This document shows positions 5,770 to 31,408 of a stretch of 31,690 bases of DNA, one piece after another. Within the stretch, counting starts at the first letter, position 1; each line of letters starts with the position of its first letter. The stretch comes from a bacterium (GTDB lineage Bacteria; JAMCPX01), in the NCBI GenBank assembly GCA_027364825.1, contig DAHXOM010000283.1, positions 1-31,690 of the forward strand. The letters run 5' to 3'. Position numbers and translations under genes: made by a program. A model generated the notes under the pieces. It was not told where the DNA came from. It made no database searches and worked only from the letters and a program-made list of their open reading frames with translations.

Positions 5770-5953
5770 AAAAAGGAAGAGTTTGATCCGAAGTGAAGAG
5801 AAACACCTGCGAACTGCCTGGTATTCTTTCATAGTATTCTGCGTGGACTGCTTCTCGTCCCTAGACAAAGATAAAATAGCTCGATAGGTCAAAAAACCCG
5901 TTTAGCAAAAAGAGCTATTGTTTCACGAACGGAGGAGGAAACTCTTCCTTTTT
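5770..5953. repeat. Dispersed ~185-bp inverted-repeat element, family R, copy 1
   Basis: Perfect 15-bp terminal inverted repeat AAAAAGGAAGAGTTT / AAACTCTTCCTTTTT. The first 89 nt match 14026-14114 at 78/89 positions by hand alignment, and a second shared block CCGTTTAGCAAAAAGAGC lies near the 3' end. Confidence 0.88.
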
Positions 5954-14019: not shown

Positions 14020-14025
14020 CCCGAA

Positions 14026-14212
14026 ACAAAGAAAGAGTTTGAGACGAAGCGAAGAAAAACACCTGCGAACTGCCTGATATACTTTCATAGTATGCTGCAT
14101 GGACTGCGTCTCGTTCAACGTCAAAAAAATACACCATGCATTTTGTAATGACCATTCCGTTTAGCAAAAAGAGCGTTGTTTTACGAGCAGAGGCGAACAA
14201 CTCTTTCCTTGT
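14026..14212. repeat. Dispersed ~185-bp inverted-repeat element, family R, copy 2
   Basis: Ends ACAAAGAAAGAGTT / AACTCTTTCCTTGT (13 of 14 complementary). Homologous to 5770-5953 and in the same orientation. Sits between two convergent stop codons. Confidence 0.88.
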
Positions 14213-14231
14213 GATAAGCAAGGAAATGAGC

Positions 14232-14819
14232 CTACAGTGCCTCTCTCATCCATTTTACGATCGGGATCAGCAGAAACGGCGCAATGATCACACCCATGCC
14301 GTACAGTGCATACGCTACATTGCTGGTAAGAAATGCCGCGCCGTCATACATGCCGTGAGACCACAACCTGCCTCCATGCGTTGAAGCATCATACAGGAAC
14401 CTCTGCCAGCCTGTGCCGTCCCAGCCGTAGATAAGAATAAAAAACATGAAAAAATATCCGATAAGCACCTGGCTCCACGCAGCCTTGAACCTGCCTTTCT
14501 GGATAAACTTGTAAGCAACCCAATAACCTAAAATGCCCTGCGTAACATTGGTAACGGCAAAAACGGTCACCAGCCACGCCGGAATAGCAGCATGTGATAC
14601 AGCGACCTGCATGGTTTCCCATTGCGGGAAATCCCAGAGCAGATATATGCCCGATGGTGCAAACAGACATGCCAGAAAGAGTACCGTGTAAATAAAATAC
14701 TTGCTGGTATACCAATCTTTCCCCTTGGAAACATCATATTCCTTTTTCAACTGCCTTGCAGCTGAAGCGGCAAAGCCTGCCCCAATCGCGTACGACCAGA
14801 ATACATCCACCTGAACCAT
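14232..14819 (-). CDS. Uncharacterised integral membrane protein, about 5 transmembrane helices, 195 aa
   Basis: SD AGGAGG upstream of the ATG at 14819 (MVQVDVFWSYAIG), five hydrophobic segments, polar motifs DFPQWETMQ, TNVTQG and GWDGTGWQRF. Confidence 0.75.
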   Translation of the reverse strand: MVQVDVFWSYAIGAGFAASAARQLKKEYDVSKGKDWYTSKYFIYTVLFLACLFAPSGIYLLWDFPQWETMQVAVSHAAIPAWLVTVFAVTNVTQGILGYWVAYKFIQKGRFKAAWSQVLIGYFFMFFILIYGWDGTGWQRFLYDASTHGGRLWSHGMYDGAAFLTSNVAYALYGMGVIIAPFLLIPIVKWMREAL

Positions 14820-14839
14820 AAAATACCTCCTGTAAACGA

Positions 14840-14867
14840 ACTTTAATCTACTATAGATTTTTGTCAA
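14840..14867 (-). promoter_or_regulatory. Putative sigma70 promoter with a palindromic operator in its spacer
   Basis: Minus strand: TTGACA (14867-14862), 16 nt, TAAAGT (14845-14840). Palindrome AATCTA-CTA-TAGATT at 14845-14859. Confidence 0.5.
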
Positions 14868-16502: not shown

Positions 16503-17293
16503 GGCATACTGCTCTGGCTTATCTCCTGCTCGATTACTTTGATGGCCCTGTCGGGGTAATTCGTAAAAAATCCGTCTACGCCCTCTTTTATAACCATCCG
16601 TACCAGTTCATCGTTGTTGATTGTATAGACGTTCACCCTGAAACCGCTGTCATGGATCTCCCGTATGATGTTGCCGTCAACAGAGGCATACGATATATTT
16701 ATCGCCTCTGCAGCAAGCTCCTTCGCCGTATTTATATAAAAGGACAGTGTGCCCGCGCCGCCGGATATACCGGCCGGAGCCTCACCGGAAATCTGATCCG
16801 CGAGTACGGCAAGCCTTATGTCCTGCGAAAGCCTTCTCATCTGCCGTATGGCCCCGATATTGAATGAGGAAACAACGGCTTCTTTGATAAGGTTGTATTT
16901 TTGTATAAGCCCGTAAACGATCCTGCAGAGTGCCTGAATCCGATCGGGTTTATCATCATCGTTTTTTAGTTCTATGTTCATCAGGATCTTATGACTTATT
17001 GCAGATAGCAGCTCTTCAAGGAGAGGGATACCGACCGGTTTCCCGTCTATGGGATCTTTAAAATTGTACTTTTTTATTTCATCGGTCGTGAGCTCCGATA
17101 CAGGCGTATCGGCATTGAATAACCTCCCGAATGTAAAATCGTGGAACACGACAACGCCGCCGTCGGATGTAAGCTGGACATCAAACTCCACAGCGTCTGC
17201 CTTCATTTTTACGGCAAGCTCGAAAGAAGGAATGGTGTTCTCGATCTCATAGCCCGATGCGCCCCTGTGGGCGTACACAACAGGCCTTTTCAT
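16499..17293 (-). CDS. Glycerophosphodiester phosphodiesterase (cytoplasmic, UgpQ/GlpQ-like)
   Basis: AHRGASG..IENT, VEFDVQLTSDG.VVVFHD, NIELK, VYTIN, DGFFTNYPD. No signal peptide. Confidence 0.93.
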   Translation of the reverse strand: MKRPVVYAHRGASGYEIENTIPSFELAVKMKADAVEFDVQLTSDGGVVVFHDFTFGRLFNADTPVSELTTDEIKKYNFKDPIDGKPVGIPLLEELLSAISHKILMNIELKNDDDKPDRIQALCRIVYGLIQKYNLIKEAVVSSFNIGAIRQMRRLSQDIRLAVLADQISGEAPAGISGGAGTLSFYINTAKELAAEAINISYASVDGNIIREIHDSGFRVNVYTINNDELVRMVIKEGVDGFFTNYPDRAIKVIEQEISQSSMP

Positions 17294-18129
17294 TTGAACA
17301 ACTCCTCCACAAAGGTGCCCTTGTCGAATATCATAAAGTCATCCATGGACTCGCCGGTGCCGAGGGCTACGACCGGGATCCTGAGCTCGTCACAAATTGT
17401 AAAGATGATGCCGCCCTTTGCAGTTCCGTCGAGTTTTGTAATAATAATACCGTCAATCCCGATATTTTCATTGAAAAGCTTTGCCTGCTGGAATGAGTTT
17501 TTACCGATGGTGGCGTCTATGATCAGGTATGTGGCCATCCTGTCACCGGCCATCGCTTTGGTCATAACCGATTTGATCTTTTTAAGCTCATGCACGAGGT
17601 TTACATTGGTGTGGAGCCTGCCTGCGGTATCACCGATAACAACGTCCCTTGACCGGTGCTTGTATGCCGTGACCGCATCGTGTATCACGGATGCAGGATC
17701 GACCCCGGGCATTGCCTTTACGATATCCATGCCGACCCTCCCCGACAGTATGGCAAGCTGTTCTATGGCAGCAGCCCTGTACGTGTCCCCTGCCCCTGTA
17801 ATAACACTGTATCCATGATCAACGTACCATTTCCCGAGCTTTGCTATGGTCGTTGTTTTGCCGGAACCGTTAATGCCGATCATAAGGATACCGCACTTCG
17901 GCTCAATCAGCGGGGCGGAAACAAGGATTTGCTTCATCCTGTCTTTGAGAGCATCTACCGGCGTCCTGCCGGGCGTTTCCCTCCCACCGATCAATCTCTC
18001 GGCAATACTGAAACTCATATCAAGAGACAGCAGCTCATCGGTATAATGTTCCCTGTCGATGAGAGCCGTACCGGACTTGCCTGATAATGTCGTAAAAAGG
18101 GAAGATAATCTCGAAAAAAAGCCCTGCAT
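17290..18129 (-). CDS. ftsY: Signal recognition particle receptor FtsY (short form without acidic domain)
   Basis: GINGSGKTTTIAKL, DTYRAAAIEQL, DPASV, DTAGRLHT, TKLDGTAKGG, GTGE. No M domain. Confidence 0.93.
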   Translation of the reverse strand: MQGFFSRLSSLFTTLSGKSGTALIDREHYTDELLSLDMSFSIAERLIGGRETPGRTPVDALKDRMKQILVSAPLIEPKCGILMIGINGSGKTTTIAKLGKWYVDHGYSVITGAGDTYRAAAIEQLAILSGRVGMDIVKAMPGVDPASVIHDAVTAYKHRSRDVVIGDTAGRLHTNVNLVHELKKIKSVMTKAMAGDRMATYLIIDATIGKNSFQQAKLFNENIGIDGIIITKLDGTAKGGIIFTICDELRIPVVALGTGESMDDFMIFDKGTFVEELFK

Positions 18130-18135
18130 GGGTAT

Positions 18136-18474
18136 TCAGATCGAGCCTTTTATGAAATTGATAAGTTCCTGGATCCTGAATTTATTGATAATCGCATGGT
18201 ATGGCGACCTGTACAGGACGAGCAAAAAATATTCTTTTGTCAGCCGGTACATCCCGAGGACATACGGCTCCATCGTGACAAACAGGGAACGGGGTTGTTC
18301 ATCGAAACCGTTGATCGTGTTAAACAATATGCTGAAATGCGCACCAATGACTTTCAACTCGTACTCCGCAACCGACCCGACAAAATCTATAGCCTCCCCT
18401 TCCGAATCCACAAATATAACCCCTTCAACCCCGCTCGAAAAGCTGACGAATTTTTGCAGGGCGTCCCGGTACAT
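18136..18474 (-). CDS. Roadblock/LC7 (MglB/MglC-like) fold protein
   Basis: 112 aa with helix-GVEGVIFVDSEGEAI-helix-beta strands (RLTKEYFLLVL)-helix pattern, resembling MglC-like Roadblock proteins. Coupled to smc (1-nt gap) and ftsY (6-nt gap). Confidence 0.62.
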   Translation of the reverse strand: MYRDALQKFVSFSSGVEGVIFVDSEGEAIDFVGSVAEYELKVIGAHFSILFNTINGFDEQPRSLFVTMEPYVLGMYRLTKEYFLLVLYRSPYHAIINKFRIQELINFIKGSI

Positions 18475-18475
18475 T

Positions 18476-21400
18476 CTATACGGCTTCTTTCTGTAGTTTC
18501 ACGGAAATGATCTTCGAAACCCCGGGTTCTTCCATGGTTATTCCATAGATAACATCGGCTATTTCTATTGTCCTCTTATTGTGTGTTATGAGCAGAAACT
18601 GGCTCTTCGTCGAAAGCTCTTTTATTACATTGTTGAGCTTCCCGACACTCGCGTCGTCGAGAGGTGCATCGATTTCATCAAGCAATGCAAAGGGGCTTGG
18701 TTTGACCATAAACACGGATATGAGCAGTGCTATGGCTGACAGGGCTTTTTCTCCTCCGGACAGCAGGTTTATGTTCTGTAACCTCTTTCCCAGGGGCTGG
18801 ATAACGATCTCCATACCGCTCTCGAGCAGGTCCTGTTCGTCCGTCAGGATGAGCTCCCCTTTCCCGCCGTCGAAAAGCTTCGGTATGACTTTCTTAAAAT
18901 TCTCGTTCACCATGTCGAAAATTTCCCTGAATAATTTTCTCGATTCCTTATTGATTGAATTGATAACCTTTTTAAGGTTGTCGATGGCCTGTTCAAGGTC
19001 CTGCTTATGTTTCTCATAAAATTCAACCCTCTTCTGCAGTTCTTCGTATTCGGCTATGGCGCCGACATTGACGTCACCCATTTTTGCTATTTTTTCTGAA
19101 AGTAAGGAAATCCTGTCCTTCCCTGCCTGGATATCGTCCTTTTCTACCGGCGCTCCATCATACTGTTCGAGTTCCACGCCGTATTTGTCCCGTGCCGTAT
19201 CCCTTGTATAATCGGTCTTCATGGTCAGCTGCGATACCTCTATGGCCAGGGAAGATTCTGCTGCTTTGATCGAGCTTATATCTTTTTCGAGCTGTTTTAT
19301 TTCCTGTTCTATGTCCGTATATTCCTTAAATTCCCTGTCATAAGAAGTCCTGGCGTCCACAATCGTATTCTGTCTCTGCTGAATATCCTGGTTCATCCCG
19401 GCAAGCTTTCCGGCTGCGGATATAGCATCCTGATCCATGGTTTCGAGCCTCTTGCTGTTGTTCGAAGCCTCCTGCTTCAACGATGCCAGTTTTCTGTTTA
19501 TATCCTCTTGCTCGGTCTTGATCCTCTTTACCTCGGCATACTTTGCATTGAGCCTCTCTTTAAACGCAGCCAGGTTAGCATTACTTTCGGATATAGAATC
19601 CTTTTTATGCTCCAGCACTGATTCAAGTTCTGCCAGCGTATTCCGCAGGCTGTCCGCAATATTTGCCTTTGCTCCTTTATCCTCTTCGTAGATCGCCTTC
19701 TTCTGTTTCAGATCGCTCACTTCTTCCAGAAGCTCGGAGGTGTTTACCTTGATTTCTTCCTCTTCCATATGGAGCGTCATCAGGGAACTCTCATAATTGT
19801 TCAGCTGGTCATCCAGACTCATGAGCTTTGCTTTTATGCTTGACTGCTGCTTCTCGATGTCCTGTCTCAGCCTTTCCTGCTCGGCAAGCTCAGAGCGGAA
19901 TCCGGCTATCCCGGCTGATAGTTTTGCCCTGTCATCCTCATAACGGCTGAGCGTACCGGTCATATCATCGAGTTCTCTTTTTAATCTCTCCAGCTCGCTC
20001 CTTCTGTCCAGTATGCCTCCTTTAATAGTTCCCTCCGAGCCGCCGGACACAATACCGGGTTTGACAACATCGCCCGACATGGTAACAGCGGTTGCACCCT
20101 GCCCGGCTACGTCATATGCCTCCGGCAGAGACGACACGATATAGACGTCATTGAACAGCACCTGGAACACGGGTAATACTTCGGTGTCCTTGACCTCAAT
20201 GATATCAAGCAGGGATATAAGCCCTTCCTTGCGACCGGTTTGTGCGGATTTGAAGTATGACTTTATTATAAAAACCGCCCTTCCTTTGTCCTGTTTCCGG
20301 AGCACATCAATCACACTGCCTGCTGTACCGTGATCCTGAACGACCATAGCCTGGACAATATCACCGAGTACCGCCTGAACTGCAAGTTCATATCCGGGTT
20401 TCACCTTGATATAATCGGCTACAACCTTGCTGATATTGAATTGTTCCGATTGTTTCATGACATACCGTGTGCCTTCGGAATAACCGTCCATGTTCTTTCT
20501 CAGGTCCTCCAGCGTACTATACCGGGAACGCACACCTTCGTGCATCTTTTTTGTTTGTTCTATACGATCCGCTAATTTTCCGGATTCTTCATCCAGCACC
20601 ATGGACTGTTTATTGAAAGATGCTGCCTTCTCTTCAAGGGCGGCAATTTGAGCGGCGTTTTCCTTTTCCTGTTTTTCAAGATCTGTCTTTTCGCCTTTCA
20701 GAGCGTTTATCTTCAGCTCAATCGCGGTCCTGTCATGCTGTATTTTTTCGAGCCGGTGTGTTATATTTTCGAAATCATGTTCCGCGGATATTATCTGGTT
20801 CTCCAGCTCCGTGATCTTTTTGATCCTGTTGAATTCGTTGTTCCTCTCTTCTTCTATCTTTTCCTTTATTGCATTGATCTGTTCTCCAAGATCATTTTTT
20901 TCCTGCTCATAGAGCTTCTGTGTTTCAACGATCGTATTCAGGCCTTTCTTCTCTTCCTCTAATTTTTCCTCCAGCACCTTGAGCTGCTCGCCGCAAGATG
21001 CCTGCCCTCTTTTGAGTTCTTCTTCATTGCTCTTTATCCGTTCGTTTTCCCGTTGAAGTGTTTCTTTTAGTTTTTTTGACGATTCGATCTTTTCCTGCAG
21101 CACCATTGCTTCTGAGGTTAACGCATTGATCCTGTTCTGCTTCTCGGATATATCGGCAGCCTGAGCATCCAGCCTTTCCTTGAACCTCTGGTGGTCCGTG
21201 TACCTCGCCGATGCCTGGGACATCACTTTTGCCAGATCGAATCTCGTACTCTCGAGGCGTCCTTTTTTGTCCTCAAGCTGGACAACAAAATCGGAAAACT
21301 CCGTTTTGAACAGGCCCAATTCGAGTGTCCTGTATTCATCTTTCAGCGTTTTATATTCCTGTGCCACTTTCACCTGCTTGTTGACCTGGTTCACCGACCG

Positions 21401-22006
21401 TTTGATCTCGGACAAAAGATCGGCAATACGCGCTATATTGGCCTTGGTCAATTCTATCTTATCGAGGGCGACCTTTTTCATGTTTTTATATTTCAGTATG
21501 CCGGCCGCGTCCTCTATGACATACCGCCGCATCTCCGGCTTGGCGTCTATGATCTCGCTTATCTGCCCCTGTTCTATGATTGAAAATGCCTTTGAGCTGA
21601 TGCTGATGTCCATGAGGAATTCCAGAATATCCTTCAGTCTCCTGGGGTCCTTATTCAGGTAATATTCGCTTTCTTCGCCCCGGTACATCCTCCTCGTGAC
21701 AGCCACCTCTGAAAAGGAATCATACGATGACGGAGTATTGGTCCCGTCGTTGGTGAAGGCAAGCGACACCTCGGCCATGCCGATAGATTTACGGTGTTCG
21801 GAGCCGTTGAAGATAAGATCGGACATCTGGTTTGCCCTGAGCTGTCTGGCACTCTGTTCGCCCATGCACCATTTTACAGCATCGACAATATTGCTTTTAC
21901 CGCTCCCGTTCGGACCGACGATGGCCACGATAGGATATTCAAAATTAAAGCTGACCGGTTCTACAAAGGTCTTAAATCCCTGTATCTCGAGTTTTTTTAA
22001 TTGTAT
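18476..22006 (-). CDS. smc: Chromosome segregation protein SMC; start codon non-canonical (ATA at 22006 proposed)
   Basis: The frame extends 26 codons upstream of the ORF-track start as IQLKKLEIQGFKTF. Walker A GPNGSGKS, Q-loop IIEQG, coiled coils, hinge, LSGGE, LLDEIDAPLD, ITH. Confidence 0.96.
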   Translation of the reverse strand: MQLKKLEIQGFKTFVEPVSFNFEYPIVAIVGPNGSGKSNIVDAVKWCMGEQSARQLRANQMSDLIFNGSEHRKSIGMAEVSLAFTNDGTNTPSSYDSFSEVAVTRRMYRGEESEYYLNKDPRRLKDILEFLMDISISSKAFSIIEQGQISEIIDAKPEMRRYVIEDAAGILKYKNMKKVALDKIELTKANIARIADLLSEIKRSVNQVNKQVKVAQEYKTLKDEYRTLELGLFKTEFSDFVVQLEDKKGRLESTRFDLAKVMSQASARYTDHQRFKERLDAQAADISEKQNRINALTSEAMVLQEKIESSKKLKETLQRENERIKSNEEELKRGQASCGEQLKVLEEKLEEEKKGLNTIVETQKLYEQEKNDLGEQINAIKEKIEEERNNEFNRIKKITELENQIISAEHDFENITHRLEKIQHDRTAIELKINALKGEKTDLEKQEKENAAQIAALEEKAASFNKQSMVLDEESGKLADRIEQTKKMHEGVRSRYSTLEDLRKNMDGYSEGTRYVMKQSEQFNISKVVADYIKVKPGYELAVQAVLGDIVQAMVVQDHGTAGSVIDVLRKQDKGRAVFIIKSYFKSAQTGRKEGLISLLDIIEVKDTEVLPVFQVLFNDVYIVSSLPEAYDVAGQGATAVTMSGDVVKPGIVSGGSEGTIKGGILDRRSELERLKRELDDMTGTLSRYEDDRAKLSAGIAGFRSELAEQERLRQDIEKQQSSIKAKLMSLDDQLNNYESSLMTLHMEEEEIKVNTSELLEEVSDLKQKKAIYEEDKGAKANIADSLRNTLAELESVLEHKKDSISESNANLAAFKERLNAKYAEVKRIKTEQEDINRKLASLKQEASNNSKRLETMDQDAISAAGKLAGMNQDIQQRQNTIVDARTSYDREFKEYTDIEQEIKQLEKDISSIKAAESSLAIEVSQLTMKTDYTRDTARDKYGVELEQYDGAPVEKDDIQAGKDRISLLSEKIAKMGDVNVGAIAEYEELQKRVEFYEKHKQDLEQAIDNLKKVINSINKESRKLFREIFDMVNENFKKVIPKLFDGGKGELILTDEQDLLESGMEIVIQPLGKRLQNINLLSGGEKALSAIALLISVFMVKPSPFALLDEIDAPLDDASVGKLNNVIKELSTKSQFLLITHNKRTIEIADVIYGITMEEPGVSKIISVKLQKEAV

Positions 22007-22020
22007 TTATATCATCCAAT

Positions 22021-25000
22021 CTACATTAAGTTCCTTAATTTATTTTTTGCTATAGTTTCCATATCGCTGGAAAGGCCGAGACTAATTGCCTTGAGGAGCG
22101 CTGCCTTTGCCTGTTCAGGCTCGTTCAGGTTCGATAACATGATGCCCTCTTTATAAAATGCAGCCGCCGGATTCTTGCTGAACTTAGCCGCATATTTATA
22201 CTCTGTCAATGCCTTTTCATACATACCGTTGGATTCGTAAACCGTTCCGAGTGCGTAATATGCATCCCCCTCATCCGGGGTAATCTGTATTGCCTTTTCA
22301 TAGTACTGCTGGGCCTTATTCATATCACCGTTTTGATAAGAAATATTGCCGAGTCCCACCATTGCCTCTGAATAACGGGGTGAAAGGTCAAGGGCTGTCA
22401 GAAATTCCTTTTTAGCGTCCTCTATTTTGCCGATGTAATTATAAGCGACGCCGAGCCTGTAATGAATCTCGGGATTTTTCGGCGCTATCTTTAGTGCCCT
22501 CTCAAGATAATCAATAGCCGAGTATGTTTCCTTGTTGTTGTAATAGTATTTGGACAGGGCAAGCATGTAGTCCGGGTTATCCGGTGCATACTTCATGGCG
22601 TTCTTTAAATCGTTGATAGCCGCAAGGTCATTTTTGCCTGCGATATTGATAAGCCCCCTCTGGAAATAAGCATCGGCCATGGTGCCGTCTATATTTACCG
22701 CCTTGGTATACTCGTTAATGGCAAATTGGATATTCCCCATGTCCCTGTACACATTACCCAGTGCATAATGATACACGGCATCCACGGGGTTTATCTTGAC
22801 AGCGCTCTCAAGGGAAGAGACCGCGGATGTAAATACCTTGCCTGCTATGTACACATTCGCCAGCTTGTAAAAAACCCTTGCCTCGTACGGCTTCATAGCT
22901 ATGGAAGAATTATATGCCTTGATTGAATCACTGAGTCTGTGCTCGCCAAAATAAATATCACCGAGCACTTCATAGGCGTACGGCAGGGTATTATCGATTG
23001 ACAGGGCTTTTAAAGCATACTTTTCCGCCTGCGTATGTTTTGATTCCTTTTCGAGCATGTCGGCCATGTATGCATTATTGTCCGCAGAAACAGGGGATAT
23101 GCTCATTGCCGTATTCAACTGCCGGATCGCATTGTCATAATCACCCTCCTTCCCCAGTACCACGGCATATTCTGTATGAAGAGGAGCGTAAGAAGGGAAT
23201 TTGGCCACGGCGCCGGATAGGATTGCGGCGGCGTTTTTATAGTCTTTTTTCTTTCTGAGGAGCCTTCCGTTCAGGGTCATAAATGCCGGGTTATCGGGGG
23301 ACTGGTGAACGGCCGTTTCAATCGTGCGTAAAGCGGTGTCCAGCTCTCCGTTCCCTTCCCGTGCAAGGGCCATCCCGTAGAGGACATCGGGATTGTTCTT
23401 TTCCAGCTTCAGACATTCATTATAATAGGAAACAGCAAGTACATATTTTTTATCGAGATAGTATGCCTGGGCAAGTTTCAGGTTACCCTCGAGCGTTGTA
23501 CTGTCGGCTGCTATCGCCGCCTTATACTGGTTCTCGGCCTCGTTCATATTGCCGCTCTTCAGGTATGCATCACCGAGGGCTATATATGTCTTCACGGACT
23601 TGTTGTTCTGCAGGGAATTTTTAAACGCTTCAATGGCAGGAGGATAATTGCTGGTCTTCATCTGCAACTTTCCTATGGTATAAAAGAGGTTTGCCTTGTC
23701 ATACGTGTCCATGGTATTGCCGGCTTTATTTAAAACAGCATTCAGATCGGCTATTGCCTGCGTTGTACCGGTAACACTGCTTGCCTGTATATCGGCCTTG
23801 AGTGTTACTGCGGATATATTGTAAGGATAACCGGCAAGTACGGTATCCAGGATATCGACAGCACGGGATGGTTCCTGCTGCCGATATATGCGCGCAAGCA
23901 GAAGCTTCGCCTTGACCATATCAGGTTCGAGTGAAGCCGCCTGTGTAAGGAGTGATGCTGCCTGGGTCATGGATTGACCCTGTTTAAAATCTATATATCC
24001 CCGGTAATATAACGCCTCGGGCAGGGAAGGAGACTTCTGTAACGCCGTGTCGATCTCCCGGGACGCCTGTTGATAATCATTGTTTGCTATGTTTATCATT
24101 GCTTCAGTCAGGTTGTACTGGGCATTATCCTTCAGCATTTCTTTCAGCCTTGCAAGGAACTTACCGCTGTTTTTCAGCTGATCCTGCAGATTATTCCGTT
24201 CTTTGAGCACGGCATAGTCCTTTGCTATACCGATATACGCCTGAACCAGATGGTGGTCCGCGGCAACAGCCTCCTCATAAAGGTTCAATGAACTCTCATA
24301 ACCGCTGATAGTACCATTTAAATACTGTTTATCCGCTTCACTGAGCAGCTGTTCTGCCCGCGCCTTTGCTTTGGCAGAAGCAGGGATTACACTATAACTC
24401 ACGAACGTTAATTTTTTGAAATCAGGATGTGCAGGGGTGTACTCGACAAGATAATAATAAACACCCATAAGGGCCGCAAGGACTATGACGATGCCTGCGG
24501 CCGATGCAAGAAGCAGTTTTGACAGGTGCTTTTTCTCAGCTACTGCCTTTTGCCGTGCTGCTGTATCTTGTGTTACCGGTAGGGATTCCGGTACGGCAAC
24601 GGTATGCTCATCCAGCAGAGAACTTTCATCCTCAGATGCCGATGGGACATTCTTTGACTGGACCTGCTTTGTATCCGCCAATTCCGGTATGTTTTCTTCC
24701 TCCATCGGTACGGTTTCCTCCGGCAGTACACCTCCTTCAGCGTTATCCCCGGCCTTTCCTGCGGGCGATTCTTCAAGCGAGGTTGACTCAAGCCAGCTGG
24801 TGTCGGCCTCACCTCTTCCTTTTGAACCTCCGCTTTGTTCCGGTGCTGTTGTACCTTCGCCTTTAATGTCGTCCATGGTGAATTCTTCGAAACCCTCTAT
24901 AACATCCCCTTCTTTATTAAGTTCTTCATTGGCCGGTGCCTTTTCGGTTGGTTTTGCAGCTGCTTCCGCCTTGCCGCCATCCAAGAAATCACTTTCAGGA

Positions 25001-25473
25001 ATGGTTTCCCCGGCATGAACATCTGCCGGCTGTTTTTCTTTATCCTGCTTCATTTCAAGAGAAGCAAAAATGTCCTCCAGGTCTGCTTTCCCTTCCCCGG
25101 ATTTCGTGCTGTCCGGAATTGTATTGTCCGGTGCTGTAGCGGCCGGTTCTGCGGGCTCAAGGGACTGTTCCTCATCTGCAGGGTTGTCCGCGGCTTTGTC
25201 CACAGAGCTGTCGATGGCACTGTCGAGAGCGTTATCGATGGCACTGTCGATGGTATTATCCGTATCGGTACCCTGCCCGCCTTGCGGAACAGCTTGTTCC
25301 TGATCATTCGGTAGTCCCTGCTCCTTGTCGTGCTCCCTGACATCCGCATCAGCCGGTAGTGCTACCTTATTCTCCTGTCCGCACTTCTTGCAGATAAATT
25401 TATAATCCTGATTTTTAAGCTGGGCCTCTGTAAACATGTACATGGTCTGACATTTTTCACACCTTAAAATCAT
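22021..25473 (-). CDS. Bitopic membrane protein: N-terminal zinc ribbon (MJ0042/GltJ-type), acidic linker, one transmembrane helix, long TPR array
   Basis: CEKC...CKKC, about 290 aa of D/E/P/A-rich linker, hydrophobic LLLASAAGIVIVLAALMGVYYYLV, then about 20 TPR-like units (for example AYFQRGLINI, IHYRLGVAY, AYYALGTVY). Confidence 0.88.
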   Translation of the reverse strand: MILRCEKCQTMYMFTEAQLKNQDYKFICKKCGQENKVALPADADVREHDKEQGLPNDQEQAVPQGGQGTDTDNTIDSAIDNALDSAIDSSVDKAADNPADEEQSLEPAEPAATAPDNTIPDSTKSGEGKADLEDIFASLEMKQDKEKQPADVHAGETIPESDFLDGGKAEAAAKPTEKAPANEELNKEGDVIEGFEEFTMDDIKGEGTTAPEQSGGSKGRGEADTSWLESTSLEESPAGKAGDNAEGGVLPEETVPMEEENIPELADTKQVQSKNVPSASEDESSLLDEHTVAVPESLPVTQDTAARQKAVAEKKHLSKLLLASAAGIVIVLAALMGVYYYLVEYTPAHPDFKKLTFVSYSVIPASAKAKARAEQLLSEADKQYLNGTISGYESSLNLYEEAVAADHHLVQAYIGIAKDYAVLKERNNLQDQLKNSGKFLARLKEMLKDNAQYNLTEAMINIANNDYQQASREIDTALQKSPSLPEALYYRGYIDFKQGQSMTQAASLLTQAASLEPDMVKAKLLLARIYRQQEPSRAVDILDTVLAGYPYNISAVTLKADIQASSVTGTTQAIADLNAVLNKAGNTMDTYDKANLFYTIGKLQMKTSNYPPAIEAFKNSLQNNKSVKTYIALGDAYLKSGNMNEAENQYKAAIAADSTTLEGNLKLAQAYYLDKKYVLAVSYYNECLKLEKNNPDVLYGMALAREGNGELDTALRTIETAVHQSPDNPAFMTLNGRLLRKKKDYKNAAAILSGAVAKFPSYAPLHTEYAVVLGKEGDYDNAIRQLNTAMSISPVSADNNAYMADMLEKESKHTQAEKYALKALSIDNTLPYAYEVLGDIYFGEHRLSDSIKAYNSSIAMKPYEARVFYKLANVYIAGKVFTSAVSSLESAVKINPVDAVYHYALGNVYRDMGNIQFAINEYTKAVNIDGTMADAYFQRGLINIAGKNDLAAINDLKNAMKYAPDNPDYMLALSKYYYNNKETYSAIDYLERALKIAPKNPEIHYRLGVAYNYIGKIEDAKKEFLTALDLSPRYSEAMVGLGNISYQNGDMNKAQQYYEKAIQITPDEGDAYYALGTVYESNGMYEKALTEYKYAAKFSKNPAAAFYKEGIMLSNLNEPEQAKAALLKAISLGLSSDMETIAKNKLRNLM
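25210..25260. repeat. Imperfect 12-bp tandem repeat within the acidic linker
   Basis: GTCGATGGCACT GTCGAGAGCGTT ATCGATGGCACT GTCGATGGTATT, encoding DNTI-DSAI-DNAL-DSAI on the minus strand. Confidence 0.65.
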
Positions 25474-26123
25474 AGGTTCTCCCTGTTTGCGATTTTTTTA
25501 GAATTTGCGATCATTTCCCTAAAATCTTTTTCCCGAAGTCCTGCACCTTTGGCGATATTCAATGCATGCGCATCATCCATAAGGTCTCTGTCCGCATGTG
25601 CATCAGAGTCAAATACGAGTCCTGCCCCTGTTTTTTTCGCTATCATCGCAACATAACCATTCGTAAAACTATGACCGCCCCTGCCGCTTATTTCAAGGTA
25701 AACATGCTTTTTTGCGGCAAGCTCGGCCTCTTTTATGCTGATAAAGCCCGGGTGGGCTATTATATCCGCCCCGCCTTCGATGCCCGCAAGGTTCGTCCTC
25801 GGTTCAACCGGTTCCACGATTGTTTCACCATGGATAACGACAACCGCGGCACCTGCCTTCCTCGACAGCTCTATCAGCCTCGGTATATCAAAAGGAGGGA
25901 CATGCGTGATCTCGACACCGGCCAGGACATTGATACCGTTTTTCTTTTCCGAAAACTCCACAGCAGCGGCCTTGATATGTTCTATAACAAAAAGGTAGTT
26001 GGAAAAGTCGACATGATCCGTGATCGCGATAACGTTAATGCCGATTACCCTTGCCCTTTGTATGAGCTCCGAAGGCAGCAGCTCTCCGTCGCTGAATAAA
26101 GAATGTGTATGAAGATCTATCAT
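25470..26123 (-). CDS. PHP-domain phosphoesterase (histidinol-phosphate-phosphatase-like family)
   Basis: IDLHTHSLFSDG, AITDH, GVEITH, IHGET, AHPG and DSDAH; metal ligands intact. Confidence 0.88.
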   Translation of the reverse strand: MIDLHTHSLFSDGELLPSELIQRARVIGINVIAITDHVDFSNYLFVIEHIKAAAVEFSEKKNGINVLAGVEITHVPPFDIPRLIELSRKAGAAVVVIHGETIVEPVEPRTNLAGIEGGADIIAHPGFISIKEAELAAKKHVYLEISGRGGHSFTNGYVAMIAKKTGAGLVFDSDAHADRDLMDDAHALNIAKGAGLREKDFREMIANSKKIANRENL

Positions 26124-27664
26124 GGGTTTATAACCTTCCTTAAAAGAGTTGGGATAATGTTCAAACTATCCGTGGTGTCTTTATTCAAAACAAATATGGG
26201 ATCCTCGCTATCCGATGATAATAATTTTCTCAAGGTCGGGATGACTTTGGTCCCGGCGTCTTTTCCATCCGGTGTCACGAAAACGTACGTTACCGGCAGA
26301 GTTTTTGCTCTCTTGAACTTATTGACCGCGGACAGGAACGAATCAAGGATCTCCTTTGACCCCTTATCGAACAATACGATGGCACCTACGGCACTGCTGG
26401 ACAATGCCATCCACAGCGGACCGTATTCAATCAGGGGGGGCACGGAAATAATCTCTATGCTCAGGAGTTCCGTAAGGGAAACCAGTCCGATCTCGCCGAA
26501 TACGACATCATCGCGGTTCGATACCGCAAAGGAACTATTCAGCGTAAATTTCGGCATATTGTTGATGCTGTTTATGAATGTTTTCAGGGAATTATAATTG
26601 GCGGACAGCACGATAACCCTTCCCCGGTGCGATTCCAGCTTCGTATGCTTATTGATTGAAACGACCTCGAGCAGCTTGAATATCTCTTCGTTTTCCAGGA
26701 GAGTGCCTTCCCGGTTCGTGACCTTCGGCGTTGCATGCTGTACAATTTCTATAATGCCTTTTTCAAGGAGGGCTACCAGCACCCGCAGTACATCATAATC
26801 CGGGAATGTACAGTTATCCACGATGTCTTCCACCTTGTTATAGAATTCAAGCAGGAGTAAAACCTCCTGGGTGATGGTCCTGACCTGCTTGGGCAGTTCC
26901 GAGAGTTTTTTCTTCAATTTTACCACAGCGTCGAGCGGCGGAAGGATATCTTTGTTCTTTTTCATCTCATCGATCTGTCTCATTCCCTCCATCAGCAGCG
27001 ACTCGGTCGTCGAGGTAATCCTTAGCGGGGTCAGGGCGCGGTGCGGTATAAATTCGAACTTTCCGTTTTTGATGGTAAGCAGCCGGTAAAATGCCTTAAC
27101 CCCTTCGACCTTTTCAAAGGTGGCGTTTATGATGCCGCCTTCCTGCAGGTATATAAAGCCGTTTCCCTTATCCGAGTATATGGTTATGGTTCCGTCTTTC
27201 TTGTTCATGCTGAATATCTGAAGCAGATCGATCAGGGATATCTGGGACAGGTTCCCTTCTATTTCCTTGTTTTCTTTCGACAGCTCTATGGTTTTCTGTC
27301 TCTTCTGGTAGATGCTGGATATCGTGCCGATAAGCTCGTCTATCCTGAACGGCTTTGTTATGACCTTTTCTCCCATGACACTTACGGATTTTAATTGATC
27401 GGGCGTACCCATGAATATCAATGCCAGGTTGTCCGTCTTCGGGTTCACGCTGATGATGTCCCTGAGTTTCTCCGTATCTATTATCGGAAGCTGCATGCCG
27501 AGTATGATGATGTCCGGGAGCTGCTCAATGATTATTTCGAGTGCCTTCGCTCCGTTGATGGCCGAGTAAATGCTGTAGCCCTGGGCCTTCAGTGCGTCTT
27601 TTATCAGTACTACGGACTTCTGGTCCGTGTCCGCTATAAAGATTTTTCCTTTTGTTTTTACCAT
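26120..27664 (-). CDS. Multidomain protein: pseudo-receiver, DUF4388/PATAN, winged-helix-like segment, degenerate MglA-like small GTPase fold
   Basis: Receiver PDIIILGM (Gly at the phospho-Asp position) with KPF. PATAN EGNLSQISLIDLLQIF...LLMEGMRQIDE. C-terminal VIVLSANYNSLKT...SVPPLIEYGPLWMALSSSAVGAIVLFD. Start placed at MVKTKGK (27664) after AGGA. Confidence 0.78.
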   Translation of the reverse strand: MVKTKGKIFIADTDQKSVVLIKDALKAQGYSIYSAINGAKALEIIIEQLPDIIILGMQLPIIDTEKLRDIISVNPKTDNLALIFMGTPDQLKSVSVMGEKVITKPFRIDELIGTISSIYQKRQKTIELSKENKEIEGNLSQISLIDLLQIFSMNKKDGTITIYSDKGNGFIYLQEGGIINATFEKVEGVKAFYRLLTIKNGKFEFIPHRALTPLRITSTTESLLMEGMRQIDEMKKNKDILPPLDAVVKLKKKLSELPKQVRTITQEVLLLLEFYNKVEDIVDNCTFPDYDVLRVLVALLEKGIIEIVQHATPKVTNREGTLLENEEIFKLLEVVSINKHTKLESHRGRVIVLSANYNSLKTFINSINNMPKFTLNSSFAVSNRDDVVFGEIGLVSLTELLSIEIISVPPLIEYGPLWMALSSSAVGAIVLFDKGSKEILDSFLSAVNKFKRAKTLPVTYVFVTPDGKDAGTKVIPTLRKLLSSDSEDPIFVLNKDTTDSLNIIPTLLRKVINP

Positions 27665-27668
27665 ATTC

Positions 27669-29537
27669 CTATATCTGCCTCTGCAAGAAATACTTTTCCT
27701 GAAGAACGGCCACAAGCTCTTCCACGATGATGGGATCGCTCGTATGAAAAACGGAGAACTGCTTGCTGCTTGACTCGTTTGTTATAAAACCGTATGCGTA
27801 TTCCTCATTCAGGTTAAACATAAAAAACCTGTTTCCGATATCCTCGTTGATAATCATGATGGGGGCATAAGAGATATCTATGTATTCCCCCTGCTGTTTT
27901 CTGCCCAGCAGGTACAGCTTCGTGTTCGAATTATACAATTTATATTGTTCCTTGATGAGCTTGATGTCCTTGGTTATGGCCGGTATGCCGAGGAATATAA
28001 GCCCGCGCATGAATGGCCGTGCAAGGATATCGCTGGAAAGCAGGTTAATAATGTCCATGATGCGGTCCTTGGTAATGATGAATATGGCGTTCGTAATATC
28101 GTCTCCCTTTTGATCCGAATCCTTGAATATCCTGAGAATATTGTCCGAGAATTCCATAAATCCGAGTGACTCCATGGATGTAATCTCTTTTATTTTGCCG
28201 GTGCTTGATCGTTTGGCCATATCATACGCTTTGGACAGGAGCGTCTGGGCGGTAGTTCCGTCGTTCGGATAGGTCGCAGAACCGATGATAAGCTCCACAT
28301 TCTTCGTGACCGAGCCGTTGGTCACATACAATGTCTGTTTGAGCTGGTTCTTGATCCTCCGCATGGTGATGATGGAACCGAAATAGTCGGTATCCGGAAG
28401 AAAGAGGTTCAACATGCTTGAATGCTCGGATACGGACAGTGTATCGGCGTCCCGTATGACTTCGCTGATCAGGTTCGTTATTTTCGTAAAAATCTCATCC
28501 ACATAAGACCTCCCGAACGTTTCTACAAGGTCCCTGTAGTTTTCTACGGACACGACCGCGATAGAGAACATGCCGTGTATTCTGTTGGCTCTTTTTATCT
28601 CGTTTTCCGTGTACTCGATAAAATACCGGTAGCTGTACGCAGGCAGGTTGTCCGCCCTTAACGTATCGGTAACCTTCTGGGAAAGCTTGACTGCGTTTGA
28701 AACCGCTATACCGCCGAACGTGGTCAGCGTCCTCGCGACCCTGATGTCCTGCACGGTAAAGACCTTTTCCTTCTTGATGAGCCTCAGCAATGCATACACA
28801 TGACCGTCCTGCCCCTGGACAATCAGGTACATCGCTTTTTTATTTTCCGCACTCGTTATAATGCAATAGCCGTCCTTCATGGACTCCCGGTACTTGAACA
28901 TCTTCCAGCTTATTGAAGCGGACTCGTCGTAGGGTTCGGACTCATAGCCGAAAGAATGCAGGAGTTCAAAGTTGTCGTCGTCCTTACGGAACCAGAGCAT
29001 CGCCTTTGCAAGCTTTAATTCCACGACCATTGCATCGATAAGCTTTTTAAACACATTGTCCAGGCTGGATTGGGAGAGTATATCGCTTGCTCTCTTGTAA
29101 ACCTCAAGCAATATCAGGTATTCCATCCCCTCTTTCGCAAGCTTTTCTTTCTCCATAAACAGCTTCTTCTGGGCTATAATGTTGGTTACGAGGTGGAGGA
29201 ACTTACTGTCATCAAACGGTTTCTTTATATAGGTATAATGTATCCCGTCATTCGGCATGAGGGATTTAACGGAAGCTAAGTTTATCGACGTTATTACAAG
29301 CACCTCGGGTTTATAAACAAGCTTTTTTGTTTTTTCGGCAATACTGTCCAGTCCGCCTTCGTTTTTGTTCGGCTCATAGATGATCAGATCGAATACCGAT
29401 ACGTCCGCATCCGCGAGTTCGTCGTTGTCATGTATGTATACCTCGTAACCTACCCCGGAAAGCAGATCGCGGTAGAGTTCCCGGTAAAACCTGTCTTTAT
29501 CTATGATCAGTATATTACCGTTTTTCATTGCGATCAC
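27669..29537 (-). CDS. Multidomain protein: atypical receiver, GAF, degenerate GGDEF, DICT-like C-terminal domain
   Basis: Receiver FDLIIYE (Glu at the phospho site) with KKPF; GAF ending IAVSNA; GGDEF-fold elements AYSYRYF...E.KRA, IRDAD, LPDTD, IGSATYPNDG; C-terminal FHTSDPIIVEELV. Confidence 0.8.
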   Translation of the reverse strand: MIAMKNGNILIIDKDRFYRELYRDLLSGVGYEVYIHDNDELADADVSVFDLIIYEPNKNEGGLDSIAEKTKKLVYKPEVLVITSINLASVKSLMPNDGIHYTYIKKPFDDSKFLHLVTNIIAQKKLFMEKEKLAKEGMEYLILLEVYKRASDILSQSSLDNVFKKLIDAMVVELKLAKAMLWFRKDDDNFELLHSFGYESEPYDESASISWKMFKYRESMKDGYCIITSAENKKAMYLIVQGQDGHVYALLRLIKKEKVFTVQDIRVARTLTTFGGIAVSNAVKLSQKVTDTLRADNLPAYSYRYFIEYTENEIKRANRIHGMFSIAVVSVENYRDLVETFGRSYVDEIFTKITNLISEVIRDADTLSVSEHSSMLNLFLPDTDYFGSIITMRRIKNQLKQTLYVTNGSVTKNVELIIGSATYPNDGTTAQTLLSKAYDMAKRSSTGKIKEITSMESLGFMEFSDNILRIFKDSDQKGDDITNAIFIITKDRIMDIINLLSSDILARPFMRGLIFLGIPAITKDIKLIKEQYKLYNSNTKLYLLGRKQQGEYIDISYAPIMIINEDIGNRFFMFNLNEEYAYGFITNESSSKQFSVFHTSDPIIVEELVAVLQEKYFLQRQI

Positions 29538-30040
29538 ATCTTATACTTGCCGGGATCCGTACTTGAAAATTGTTTAAGCAGCTCATCATATTTTTTCTTT
29601 TTATCCTCTGCATCGGTATCGGATATGCCGGTCGCCGCTATTATGGATTCTATCGATTTATCAAGGACGACTTTGTCCACGAATATGGAAGCCGACATCC
29701 TCAGTGCTATTGCTATAGCGTCGGAAGGCCTTGAATCTATTGTAATCTCTCTATCCATTATCTTCAGGAATAACATGGCGTAGTACGTATTGTCTTTCAA
29801 TTCCGTAATCTCGACCTTTGTCGCAGAGACGTTCAGTTCGGTTAATACGCTCTTGATAAGATCGTGGGTGTTCGGCCTCGGTGCCTTGATCCCTTCGAGC
29901 TCCATCATAATGGCGCTCGCTTCAGCAACACCGATCCAGATGGGGAGGGTATACTTGTTTTCGCTGTCGCGCAGCACGACTATCGGAGTTGAATTTACGG
30001 GATCGATCATAATACCGATTACCTTCATTTCGATAAGCAT
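29534..30040 (-). CDS. Bifunctional nuclease (DUF151/BFN domain) protein
   Basis: PIVVLRD...LPIWIGVAEA, PRPNTHDL, YYAML, IDSRPSDAIAIALR. Start placed at MLIEMKV (30040) after GGAGGA. Confidence 0.9.
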   Translation of the reverse strand: MLIEMKVIGIMIDPVNSTPIVVLRDSENKYTLPIWIGVAEASAIMMELEGIKAPRPNTHDLIKSVLTELNVSATKVEITELKDNTYYAMLFLKIMDREITIDSRPSDAIAIALRMSASIFVDKVVLDKSIESIIAATGISDTDAEDKKKKYDELLKQFSSTDPGKYKM

Positions 30041-30041
30041 A

Positions 30042-31370
30042 TCATTCCTCCTCCGGAATGTGTTTACCATACAATGCATTGTCCGAATAATCATCGATCA
30101 GTACGTCCGCAACCGTACCTTCCGGCACCGTGCCTGAAAAATTCACCAGCCTTCCATGCATCGTCCTTCCCTGCTGCCTCCCCTGCTTTTTACTGTCGCC
30201 TTCCACAAGGACCCGCTGCACTGTGCCGGCAAGGGCACGGTATATTTTTCTTGTTATTTCAAGCTGGGCATCCTGCAGCTCTTTCAGCCTCCCGGCTATT
30301 GTATGCTCCGGCACCTTGTCCCCGTATTTGTTCGCCCGTGCAAGCGGCCTGTCCGAGTATTTAAACGAAAATATGTTATCATAATTTGCGCGTCTTACAA
30401 ACATAATTGTATCGTGGTGGTCCTGATCAGTCTCCGACGGAAAGCCCGCTATGAAATCAGAGGTAACCGCAACATCGGGCTTCAATGTCCTTATCCTGTT
30501 TATTTTATCCATGTATTCTTCCACGGTATACCCTCTTGCCATCAGTTTCAATATCCTGTCGGATCCGGACTGGATGGGAAGATGTATATGCGGACAAACC
30601 TTGTCGAAATCCGTGAATGCATGCATAAGTTTGTCGGTCAGGTCCTTTGGATGCGAGGTAATGAACCGGATACGCTCCAGACCTTTTATATCGTTCAGCA
30701 TGGATAACAGCTCATACAGCGTTACCTGCTTTTCACCGGCATTATCCCTGTATGAATTTACATTCTGTCCCAGCAGGACGACCTCTTTCACCCCGGAAGC
30801 AACCAGCGTGTACACCTCGTCTATTATAGAGCGCACATTCCTGCTTACCTCCCTGCCGCGAAGATAGGGTACGGTACAGTACGAGCAGAAGTTATCGCAC
30901 CCTTCCATGATCGTGACATAGGCCTTTACCCCGTTCATGTCCTTCACCGGATTCCTGAAACGGTTCTGGTCTGTATCCGGTGCCACGGCGACAACAGGCC
31001 CGGTTGTTTTAGCCTGGCGGATAAGCTCATCGATCCTGTGGACCTGCGATGGCCCTACGACAACATCCACGCCTTTAAACCTGCCAACGAGCTTCCTGCC
31101 CTCCTGCTGTGCGACGCAACCGCTGAAAACAATAACCCTGTTCTGAGCAGTTTCTGATCTCCGTTTCTTGAGCTGCGCATACCTCCCCACACTCGAGTAG
31201 GCCTTTTGTTCTGCCTTTGCCCGCACACTACAGGTATTGACGATGACGACCTCAGCGTCCCTGGGGTTATCGGTCTGCACATACCCCCCGCCGGAAAGAA
31301 TCGACAGCATCCGTTCCGAATCATGCTCATTCATCTGGCAGCCGTACGTTTCAATATAAACCTTTTTCAT
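30042..31370 (-). CDS. miaB: tRNA-2-methylthio-N6-dimethylallyladenosine synthase (methylthiotransferase)
   Basis: ETYGCQMNEHDSE, NTCSVR, GCVAQ (UPF0004 Cys ligands), EGCDNFCSYC, RIRFITSHPKD, HLPIQSGSD, YSDRP and a C-terminal TRAM domain. Confidence 0.96.
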   Translation of the reverse strand: MKKVYIETYGCQMNEHDSERMLSILSGGGYVQTDNPRDAEVVIVNTCSVRAKAEQKAYSSVGRYAQLKKRRSETAQNRVIVFSGCVAQQEGRKLVGRFKGVDVVVGPSQVHRIDELIRQAKTTGPVVAVAPDTDQNRFRNPVKDMNGVKAYVTIMEGCDNFCSYCTVPYLRGREVSRNVRSIIDEVYTLVASGVKEVVLLGQNVNSYRDNAGEKQVTLYELLSMLNDIKGLERIRFITSHPKDLTDKLMHAFTDFDKVCPHIHLPIQSGSDRILKLMARGYTVEEYMDKINRIRTLKPDVAVTSDFIAGFPSETDQDHHDTIMFVRRANYDNIFSFKYSDRPLARANKYGDKVPEHTIAGRLKELQDAQLEITRKIYRALAGTVQRVLVEGDSKKQGRQQGRTMHGRLVNFSGTVPEGTVADVLIDDYSDNALYGKHIPEEE

Positions 31371-31379
31371 ATTTTGAAA

Positions 31380-31408
31380 ATTGTAATAGTGATATGAAAT
31401 ATTGTCAA
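31380..31408 (-). promoter_or_regulatory. Near-consensus sigma70 promoter for miaB and probably the downstream run
   Basis: Minus strand: TTGACA (31408-31403), 17 nt, TACAAT (31385-31380), only 9 nt from the ATG at 31370. Confidence 0.75.

Follow-up and report, generated by a model that had tools for sequence, protein, structure and literature searches.

Does a tightly packed run of bacterial genes encode one signalling device, or do separate units merely lie side by side in it? The question is raised by a 31,690-nt stretch of bacterial DNA, referred to below as the window (contig DAHXOM010000283.1 of assembly GCA_027364825.1, lineage JAMCPX01), in which four uncharacterised genes lie between positions 18,136 and 29,537 within a run that also holds miaB, smc and ftsY. 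A sequence-only reading of the window had joined the four into a single polarity hub: a receiver-GAF-degenerate GGDEF protein (protein 1), a pseudo-receiver-PATAN protein with a degenerate GTPase-like domain (protein 2), a protein with a zinc ribbon, a transmembrane helix and tetratricopeptide repeats (TPRs), and a 112-residue Roadblock-like protein. We find that the genes for proteins 1 and 2 are a widely conserved adjacent pair, a two-gene pseudo-enzyme module that forms the core of the run. The pair is likely a receptor system for cyclic di-GMP (c-di-GMP) of the degenerate-GGDEF type, whose unusual part is a Ras-like domain without a P-loop that is predicted to act as a docking surface.

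A conserved pair of adjacent genes

The pair comprises the following features of the window.

27669..29528, minus strand: core gene 1, encoding protein 1 (619 residues), assigned from Pfam, an AlphaFold2 model and VIA-align
28443..28454, minus strand: RxxD I-site of protein 1 (R359-D-A-D362), a predicted c-di-GMP-binding motif
27672..28166, minus strand: DICT-like C-terminal domain of protein 1 (residues 455-619), predicted docking site for the pseudo-GTPase
26120..27664, minus strand: core gene 2, encoding protein 2 (514 residues), assigned from Pfam, a structure model, Foldseek and VIA-align
26393..26431, minus strand: switch-II-like segment of protein 2 (residues 412-424, with P416-L-W418), centre of the predicted interface

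A scan of a genome collection with an alignment of protein 2 returned 77 loci, nine of them from the host's own family and most of the others labelled Myxococcota or Deltaproteobacteria. Gene 1 lies upstream of gene 2 in 71 of these loci; five of the six that do not have it offer less than 330 bp of upstream sequence, and the sixth was not clustered. The gap between the genes is within 60 nt in 66 of the 69 cases measured (median 4 nt). Co-occurrence was also followed in evenly drawn samples from two phyla, those of genomes G031 and G035, each sample being limited to genomes of 90% completeness or more and including its centre genome; the domain-restricted profiles used had been built partly from the sampled lineages. 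Both protein profiles match the same 21 of 121 genomes in the first sample, on one contig and within about 2 kb of each other in 20 of them, and the same 19 of 151 in the second, on one contig in 18, with one additional stand-alone GTPase. Over both samples the pair is thus found on one contig in 38 of 40 genomes. The sequence-only reading had proposed that the neighbourhood may be widespread in deltaproteobacteria, which is so for the two genes and fails for the four together.

The genes most often found around the pair are miaB, which is present at 64 of the 77 loci, a bifunctional nuclease gene and a PHP-family gene. In most Myxococcota-like loci guaB-guaA follow downstream, and a gene for a cyclic nucleotide-binding protein is often inserted. 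No pilus genes were found among the recurrent neighbours of the pair loci. In 14 further pair loci, 12 of them with miaB upstream, all copies of protein 1 keep RxxD and none has GGDEF. A literature search, with most subscription papers and supplements outside its reach, found neither the pair described nor any bacterial Ras-like domain that lacks a P-loop and serves in such a role.

A degenerate GGDEF protein with an intact I-site

Protein 1 consists of a receiver (1-122), a coiled coil, a GAF domain (154-286), a GGDEF domain (289-447) and an alpha/beta domain (455-619), as determined by Pfam on 45 orthologues. In the AlphaFold2 model (mean predicted local distance difference test score, pLDDT, 83.6) the GGDEF fold aligns to 6d9m over 155 residues (VIA-align Z 22.1, root-mean-square deviation 2.5) and the GAF domain to a GAF domain (Z 16.1). 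Pfam and model therefore agree with the domain order that had been read from the sequence, to which the C-terminal domain, unnamed there, is added. The receiver is canonical, with its phospho-acceptor, in 33 of the 45 orthologues; it is degenerate here, with E52 at the phospho-aspartate position, and absent from at least four orthologues (L036, L037, L049 and L055).

The GGDEF domain has lost its catalytic residues throughout the family. GG[DE]E occurs in none of 81 family rows, 38 of which are below 60% identity, and protein 1 reads SVSEHSS at that place. Catalytic positions 327, 335, 344 and 366 are scrambled in these rows and invariant in 23 to 24 of 24 control cyclases. The controls derive from 30 of the 89 loci with a GGDEF match in five pair-bearing genomes, and the PleD numbering was transferred through them in place of a direct alignment to PleD. 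Protein 1 carries S327 and V335 at metal and guanine sites (D327, N335 and D344 in PleD) and so has neither the GG[DE]EF motif nor the metal- and guanine-binding residues of an active diguanylate cyclase. The I-site has been kept: R316, R359 and D362 are present in 81 of 81 rows, and position 391 is R in 78 and K in three, as compared with 22 (R316), 22 (R359), 23 (D362) and 15 (R391) of the 24 control cyclases. PleD binds c-di-GMP with R359, D362, R390 and R313 (PMC7288161; this and the other papers given here by accession are cited from excerpts). Because the I-site is selectively retained while the catalytic residues are lost, protein 1 is likely a protein that reads c-di-GMP, as far as its sequence can tell.

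A dead active site combined with a retained RxxD I-site is also the design of the degenerate-GGDEF receptors Bdellovibrio CdgA (Bd3125) and PelD, and CdgA acts together with RomR and a TPR protein in a hub at the cell pole (PMC3983030). Protein 1 differs from both in its REC-GAF-GGDEF-DICT-like architecture and in having a dedicated, translationally coupled pseudo-GTPase partner. PopA and SgmT are further c-di-GMP receptors of the degenerate-GGDEF kind.

The resemblance of the C-terminal alpha/beta domain to DICT (PF10069/PF17150) has the standing of a lead. It comes from Atlas scores of 0.79-0.80, the ten best named matches all belonging to one family or clan; Pfam DICT matches one of 37 members (E 0.11) and PF17150 is matched in none of five genomes. 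A profile search for solved relatives of the domain found none (best E 0.47), and the fold searches with the whole model barely probed it.

A Ras-like fold without a P-loop

Protein 2 begins with a pseudo-receiver, in which the phospho position is Asp in only 4 of 45 rows, followed by a DUF4388/PATAN domain (136-235; 83 bits against a Pfam cut-off of 25), a helical region (240-310) and a Ras-like fold (345-514). The helical region holds the family motif TQEVLLLLE and appears winged-helix-like by secondary structure. Foldseek matches the Ras-like fold to Arf (E 8e-7), and VIA-align places it with MglA (3t12; Z 11.8, root-mean-square deviation 3.4, 149 residues aligned), with Rag and Ras tied at Z 11-12. 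The P-loop GxxxxGK[ST] occurs in none of the 45 rows and G3 reads SVPPL. With the GGDEF motif lost from one protein and the P-loop from the other, the earlier view of the proteins as largely non-catalytic is borne out.

The domains and fold of this protein had been called correctly as pseudo-receiver, PATAN and degenerate MglA-like GTPase, but “MglA-like” applies only in the sense of the wider family. The protein 2 profile aligns over 140 columns to a stand-alone GTPase of the CvnD type (probability 93.6%), and its comparison with two group-1-type MglA sequences, one of them a 92-residue fragment, gave no match (0.4% each); CvnD is thus closer than the MglA of Myxococcus. As compared with the MglA and CvnD small GTPases (PMC4316618), protein 2 shares the Ras-like fold, a segment matching the G3/switch-II region of CvnD and the association with PATAN, but it has no P-loop, is fused behind a pseudo-receiver and PATAN instead of being a single-domain protein next to mglB, and has no coupled MglB: no Roadblock cluster was found among the recurrent pair neighbours outside the host's family. 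With the PATAN response regulators PatA, PixE and PixG it has the pairing of PATAN and receiver in common. Here, however, the receiver is N-terminal and non-phosphorylatable, the helical and pseudo-GTPase domains are additional, and the partner is a GGDEF-type receptor in place of a chemosensory or light kinase. A candidate Myxococcus counterpart, MXAN_5791, was rejected, as that protein has 348 residues (PMC4686200).

A predicted complex of proteins 1 and 2

Proteins 1 and 2 are predicted to bind each other directly. A model of protein 1 (136-619) with protein 2 (1-514) scored 0.78 (0.77-0.79 over the runs), with 0.00 for the best control, and thereby supports a direct contact between the GGDEF and the PATAN protein, a pairing that had been proposed for modelling. 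Among 157 solved complexes 116 scored as high, as did 2 among 215 mismatched pairs, a benchmark whose calibration is only rough here, since the complex was modelled with custom alignments. At least 63% of the contacts are common to the runs and the partner pLDDT is at least 77. As no solved relative of the DICT-like domain was found, the score has no obvious origin in the recall of a similar complex. In the model, protein 1 contributes residues 475-506, 572-581 and 595-597 of the DICT-like domain together with GGDEF residues 318 and 421-425, and protein 2 contributes the switch-II-like segment of the pseudo-GTPase (404-424), centred on P416. The core of the interface is strongly conserved (weighted conservation 0.93 for P416, 0.96 for W418, 0.95 for Y579 and 0.85 for H595).

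The other genes of the run

The genes around the pair, and the promoter-like site ahead of them, are these.

31380..31408, minus strand: best promoter-like site, TTGACA-17-TACAAT, an 11/12 match to consensus and no more than that, ending 10 nt before the miaB ATG
30042..31370, minus strand: miaB, which opens the run and is usually found upstream of the pair (TIGR01574 above cut-off)
29534..30040, minus strand: bifunctional nuclease (DUF151) gene, often found with miaB and the pair (PF02577, E 1.7e-38)
25470..26123, minus strand: PHP-family gene (PRK06361), frequent downstream neighbour of the pair
22021..25473, minus strand: zinc-ribbon/TPR gene (1150 residues), nearly lineage-restricted at this place and outside the conserved pair
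18476..22006, minus strand: smc (TIGR02168)
18136..18474, minus strand: gene for the 112-residue MglC-paralogous Roadblock, of the DxEGE subfamily, which is coupled to the smc stop and forms a module of its own
17290..18129, minus strand: short ftsY (279 residues; TIGR00064 above cut-off)

Eleven minus-strand genes follow each other in the order miaB, bifunctional nuclease, protein 1, protein 2, PHP, zinc-ribbon/TPR, smc, Roadblock, ftsY, GDPD and Na/Pi transporter, and each of the ten junctions, with starts corrected, is a 4-nt overlap or a gap of 1-14 nt. The four genes of the proposed hub are real minus-strand open reading frames, and the overlaps and gaps of 14 nt or less ascribed to them are confirmed. 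They are not contiguous: the PHP-family gene (NF004981, E 1.5e-80) separates the PATAN gene from the zinc-ribbon/TPR gene, and smc (3.5 kb) separates the latter from the Roadblock gene. Since equally tight junctions are found at miaB, the bifunctional nuclease gene, ftsY, GDPD and the transporter gene, the four are coupled only as the whole run is.

Co-conservation, on which the unity of the four genes depends, is missing. The relatives G002, G007 and G008 share the gene order, and G006 does so up to the end of its contig. Among the 77 loci of gene 2, the Roadblock gene was found in four, all from the host's family, and the zinc-ribbon/TPR gene in seven of that family and in one distant look-alike (L044), where a zinc-ribbon and a TPR reading frame lie between PHP and smc. 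At the 42 loci outside the family with at least 9 kb of downstream sequence, neither gene was detected by BLASTP at single-query sensitivity, and smc-ftsY is present at one. Even within the family, G010 has smc-ftsY without the Roadblock gene, its sole Roadblock-profile match being true MglC, and in G009 miaB-nuclease-pair-PHP and zinc-ribbon/TPR-smc-Roadblock-ftsY are on separate contigs, each with other flanks. In the single chromosome of G034, smc-Roadblock-ftsY lies about 240 kb from the pair. Two of the 21 pair genomes in the G031 sample match the Roadblock profile (E 1e-12), one of these matches being true MglC. No zinc-ribbon/TPR gene is found directly upstream of smc in any of nine smc-Roadblock loci inspected. 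Among the loci surveyed outside the family, the Roadblock gene never adjoins the pair, and in the pair-bearing genomes of the samples the two never share a contig. That smc and ftsY adjoin the four genes here, from which co-expression and a possible tie to the cell cycle had been deduced, is a lineage-specific arrangement and not a trait of the pair, which corrects the larger claim.

The 112-residue protein had been described as Roadblock/LC7-like, and comparison with its relatives supports the assignment indirectly. It has no Pfam match of its own, and a single-sequence search of the PDB with it gave no match; its relatives score above the PF03259 (Robl_LC7) cut-off, the family profile finds MglC (7ct3) as its best solved-structure match (E 9e-15) along with dynein Roadblocks, and Atlas gives 0.93 for Roadblock with 203 shared features. 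The 21 Roadblock-profile matches of the G035 sample comprise 17 that adjoin smc, two that adjoin ftsY only and two true MglC, and the gene stays behind smc even where ftsY has relocated. The protein resembles Myxococcus xanthus MglC (7ct3; MglB_orphan1, PMC4719450) in size and in being an orphan of mglA, but it sits behind smc, outside the TPR-mglC-pepP/aroQ-accBC context. In a 56-row tree it falls outside the supported MglC clade (100/97) that holds the host's own MglC, encoded in a TPR-mglC-pepP-accBC locus on contig C328. It has E25 in place of D26, a conserved residue of the MglC surface that binds MglB (PMC4719450), and DxEGE instead of the FDGI motif. By these sequence characters it is an MglC-paralogous Roadblock that belongs with smc as a separate module. 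More DxxGE MglC-paralogous Roadblocks, some with a C-terminal extension, were seen outside smc-ftsY in the G031 sample (L129-L141, L146, L149 and L152).

The zinc-ribbon/TPR protein has the parts that had been described: an MJ0042-type zinc ribbon (1-33), an acidic linker (25% D+E), one transmembrane helix (320-338) preceded by lysines, and then TPRs, which by the positive-inside rule are predicted to be periplasmic. The N-terminal ribbon, long acidic linker and single helix are those of GltJ/AgmX; neither a GYF nor a TonB_C domain was detected, and the match to GltJ (NF033761) is 21 bits against a cut-off of 450, the zinc ribbon alone matching. The TPRs are numerous as in SgmX, which like Bd2492 works with cytoplasmic MglA (PMC3983030, PMC11580455), but here they lie beyond the membrane helix. 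As the zinc ribbon of GltJ binds MglB (PMC11135422), a connection of this protein with the canonical MglB of the host is, by analogy, possible. Nothing ties it to the pair. It is an independent GltJ/AgmX-like envelope protein, encoded by a nearly lineage-restricted gene. Of the proposed route from c-di-GMP to an envelope-spanning TPR protein, the part upheld is the GGDEF protein, very likely a reader of c-di-GMP.

Function of the pair

The housekeeping run appears to juxtapose two separately conserved modules and one lineage-specific gene, and the products of its core pair are predicted to form a complex devoid of enzyme activity, likely reading c-di-GMP and likely signalling via PATAN to the type IV pilus/MglA machinery; we regard this explanation as reasonably probable. 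The mechanism starts from what sequences and genomes show: protein 1 is devoid of any catalytic GGDEF residue and keeps its I-site, protein 2 has a Ras-like fold and no P-loop, and their genes are adjacent and co-occur. The switch-II-like helix of the pseudo-GTPase is predicted to dock on the DICT-like domain and to touch the GGDEF domain at 318 and 421-425, beside R316 of the I-site. Dimeric c-di-GMP could then cross-link two GGDEF domains, alter this contact and free or reposition the PATAN protein. In the last and weakest step PATAN would act on PilB/PilC or on an MglA module.

PATAN domains bind PilB1/PilC in Synechocystis (bioRxiv 2021.06.11.447907) and sit near MglA/MglB genes (PMC4316618). 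Together with the distribution of the pair among MglA-bearing genomes, this makes a pilus or polarity output our best guess, with about an even chance of being right. The host carries canonical mglB-mglA elsewhere (C357), besides the TPR-mglC locus (C328) and, on C69, another MglA-like gene with a PATAN gene close by. In the G035 sample, MglA with at least 80% identity to the host's canonical MglA fragment is found in 30 of 151 genomes; all 19 pair genomes and all 19 Roadblock-match genomes fall within these 30 and jointly cover 29 of them. In a 78-row RecA tree the pair requires 8 changes and MglA 10. Of the approximately 119 genomes that lack canonical MglA, the tree includes 50, chosen by handle number; left out are G180 and G171, in which the motif was not found, and G213, which gave no RecA match.

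Several observations weigh against this explanation. The 80% threshold was set post hoc, after a gap had been seen (at E 1e-30 MglA is found in 76 of 151 genomes), and the RecA tree yields just two independent contrasts on supported branches (p 0.5), so that shared ancestry may account for the nesting; independent-pair tests of pair against MglA, Roadblock against MglA and pair against Roadblock, with two pairs each, were all non-significant. The conserved neighbours of the pair are housekeeping genes (miaB, the bifunctional nuclease gene, PHP and guaBA) and not pilus genes, and many of the 77 loci belong to one Myxococcota-like lineage. The I-site residues are common in active cyclases too, as the controls show, and their retention suggests binding. 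Apart from its core, the predicted interface shows no excess of conservation over the remainder of either domain (permutation p 0.41 and 0.29), and the rough calibration of its score also counts here. Finally, a smc-linked Roadblock is found in 9 of the 19 pair genomes of the G035 sample, where about 2.4 would be expected by chance, which leaves some room for a loose functional tie between the pair and this Roadblock.

A different output is conceivable, in which the pair senses nucleotide or growth status, with c-di-GMP or a different guanine nucleotide as the signal, and adjusts tRNA modification through MiaB or guanine synthesis through GuaAB instead of motility. The frequency of miaB upstream, in the 77 loci as in the 14 further ones, the guaB-guaA genes and the inserted cyclic nucleotide-binding gene speak for it, as does the lack of recurrent pilus genes. 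Still, the pair occurs without miaB upstream in G012 and without both miaB and guaBA at L207, downstream neighbours vary freely, no domain indicates tRNA or purine enzymes, and signalling genes often ride strong housekeeping promoters; we consider this output unlikely. The input may also differ: protein 1 might bind no dinucleotide at all, RxxD and the arginines being structural or partner-binding, and the pair would be a protein-protein scaffold driven by its receiver or GAF domain. Some degenerate GGDEF domains, that of FimX for example, are known not to bind c-di-GMP (PMC7288161). The presence of I-site residues in active cyclases, the reach of the predicted interface to GGDEF residues 318 and 421-425 and the phospho-acceptor receivers of 33 of 45 orthologues fit such a scaffold; the conservation of four separate I-site positions at 96-100% across rows of about 20% identity, above the controls and with the catalytic residues drifting, does not, and the receiver is degenerate here and missing from several orthologues. 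It is accordingly a quite unlikely account.

As for the four genes acting as one polar scaffold of Roadblock, zinc ribbon/TPR, pseudo-GTPase and c-di-GMP receptor, co-expressed with smc and ftsY and tied to the cell cycle, the shared gene order of the relatives, the single strong promoter-like site before miaB with no convincing terminator in the run, the look-alike at L044, the joint nesting in 29 of 30 MglA genomes and the binding of MglB by the GltJ ribbon (PMC11135422) would all be in keeping with it. Against these stand the gene missing from G010 and the split run of G009, the distant smc-Roadblock-ftsY of G034, the 42 loci outside the family, the two matches in 21 pair genomes, the nine smc-Roadblock loci and the position of the TPRs beyond the membrane helix. 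The scaffold is largely refuted by the missing co-conservation, and we consider it very improbable.

The explanation preferred here, an enzyme-less pair reading c-di-GMP, has a bolder form that we hold to be possible but doubtful: an undescribed, ancient deltaproteobacterial module whose pseudo-GTPase keeps only the switch-II effector surface, as a dedicated clamp on a c-di-GMP receptor, so that c-di-GMP would replace GTP as the switch input and feed via PATAN into MglA/type IV pilus polarity. If true, bacteria would have a pseudo-small-GTPase whose partner is defined, on a route from c-di-GMP to the MglA polarity/pilus machinery that is known in pieces only (CdgA in Bdellovibrio). The pair is a compact, testable two-protein candidate across several uncultured deltaproteobacterial lineages, with residues predicted to bind the ligand (R359, D362) or to form the interface (P416, W418, Y579, H595). 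What the analysis newly contributes is the counting of co-occurrence by genome, a motif test with control cyclases, the model of the complex and the nesting within MglA-bearing genomes.

Two loci elsewhere also carry small GTPase genes. Within 10 kb, the host contig C69 (1-9678) carries a REC-PATAN gene, two genes with zinc-ribbon-like/acidic-linker N-termini and an extended MglA-like GTPase, along with birA, coaX and fusA, and would be the better candidate PATAN-MglA locus of this genome. In G238 (L195, 3687-7687), the genes for a Roadblock protein and for an intact small GTPase of the CvnD type directly precede cheR-, cheW-, cheY- and cheB-like genes, named by sequence reading.

Transcription signals and minor features

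Promoter-like and terminator-like sites in general occur near shuffle level (37 against 28.4 +/- 5.2 and 16 against 18.6 +/- 3.5, respectively), and no convincing minus-strand terminator was found within the run. No Shine-Dalgarno-like sequence precedes miaB which, with the promoter-like site so near (31370-31408), suggests that the first gene is nearly leaderless. In the metatranscriptome data of one study, contigs map to smc, the zinc-ribbon/TPR gene and both core genes; they are short, their strand and level are unreadable, and none of those listed bridges a junction. The GC content is flat (42-51%), a scan of it giving no island signature. The host genome is 2.46 Mb and 87% complete, its relatives carry the label Deltaproteobacteria bacterium, and over 90% of sampled words are present in two public runs, mine-drainage metagenomes of one study from which the DNA may have come.

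The N-terminus of smc (xQLKKLEIQGFK) starts at ATA (22004-22006, minus strand), as compared with ATG in 7 of 7 relatives. Either smc is intact and uses a non-canonical start, or the assembly is in error at this spot, across which the listed DNA contigs break. FtsY, of the same length across the family, matches TIGR00064 from residue 81 with no SRP54_N match listed, and by these profile matches its N domain is short or divergent. Behind the run, after a small gap, a hydrophobic protein of 211-213 residues is encoded at 14232-14867, with no Pfam or NCBIfam match. A dispersed intergenic repeat of about 185 nt that ends in a hairpin is found at about 14025-14215 and at 5767-5950, and has about 20 copies on different contigs with 73-88% identity (28 BLASTN matches). 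It could be an element resembling a miniature inverted-repeat transposable element or a structured RNA, and its dispersal accounts for the loose read ends in the public-data matches.

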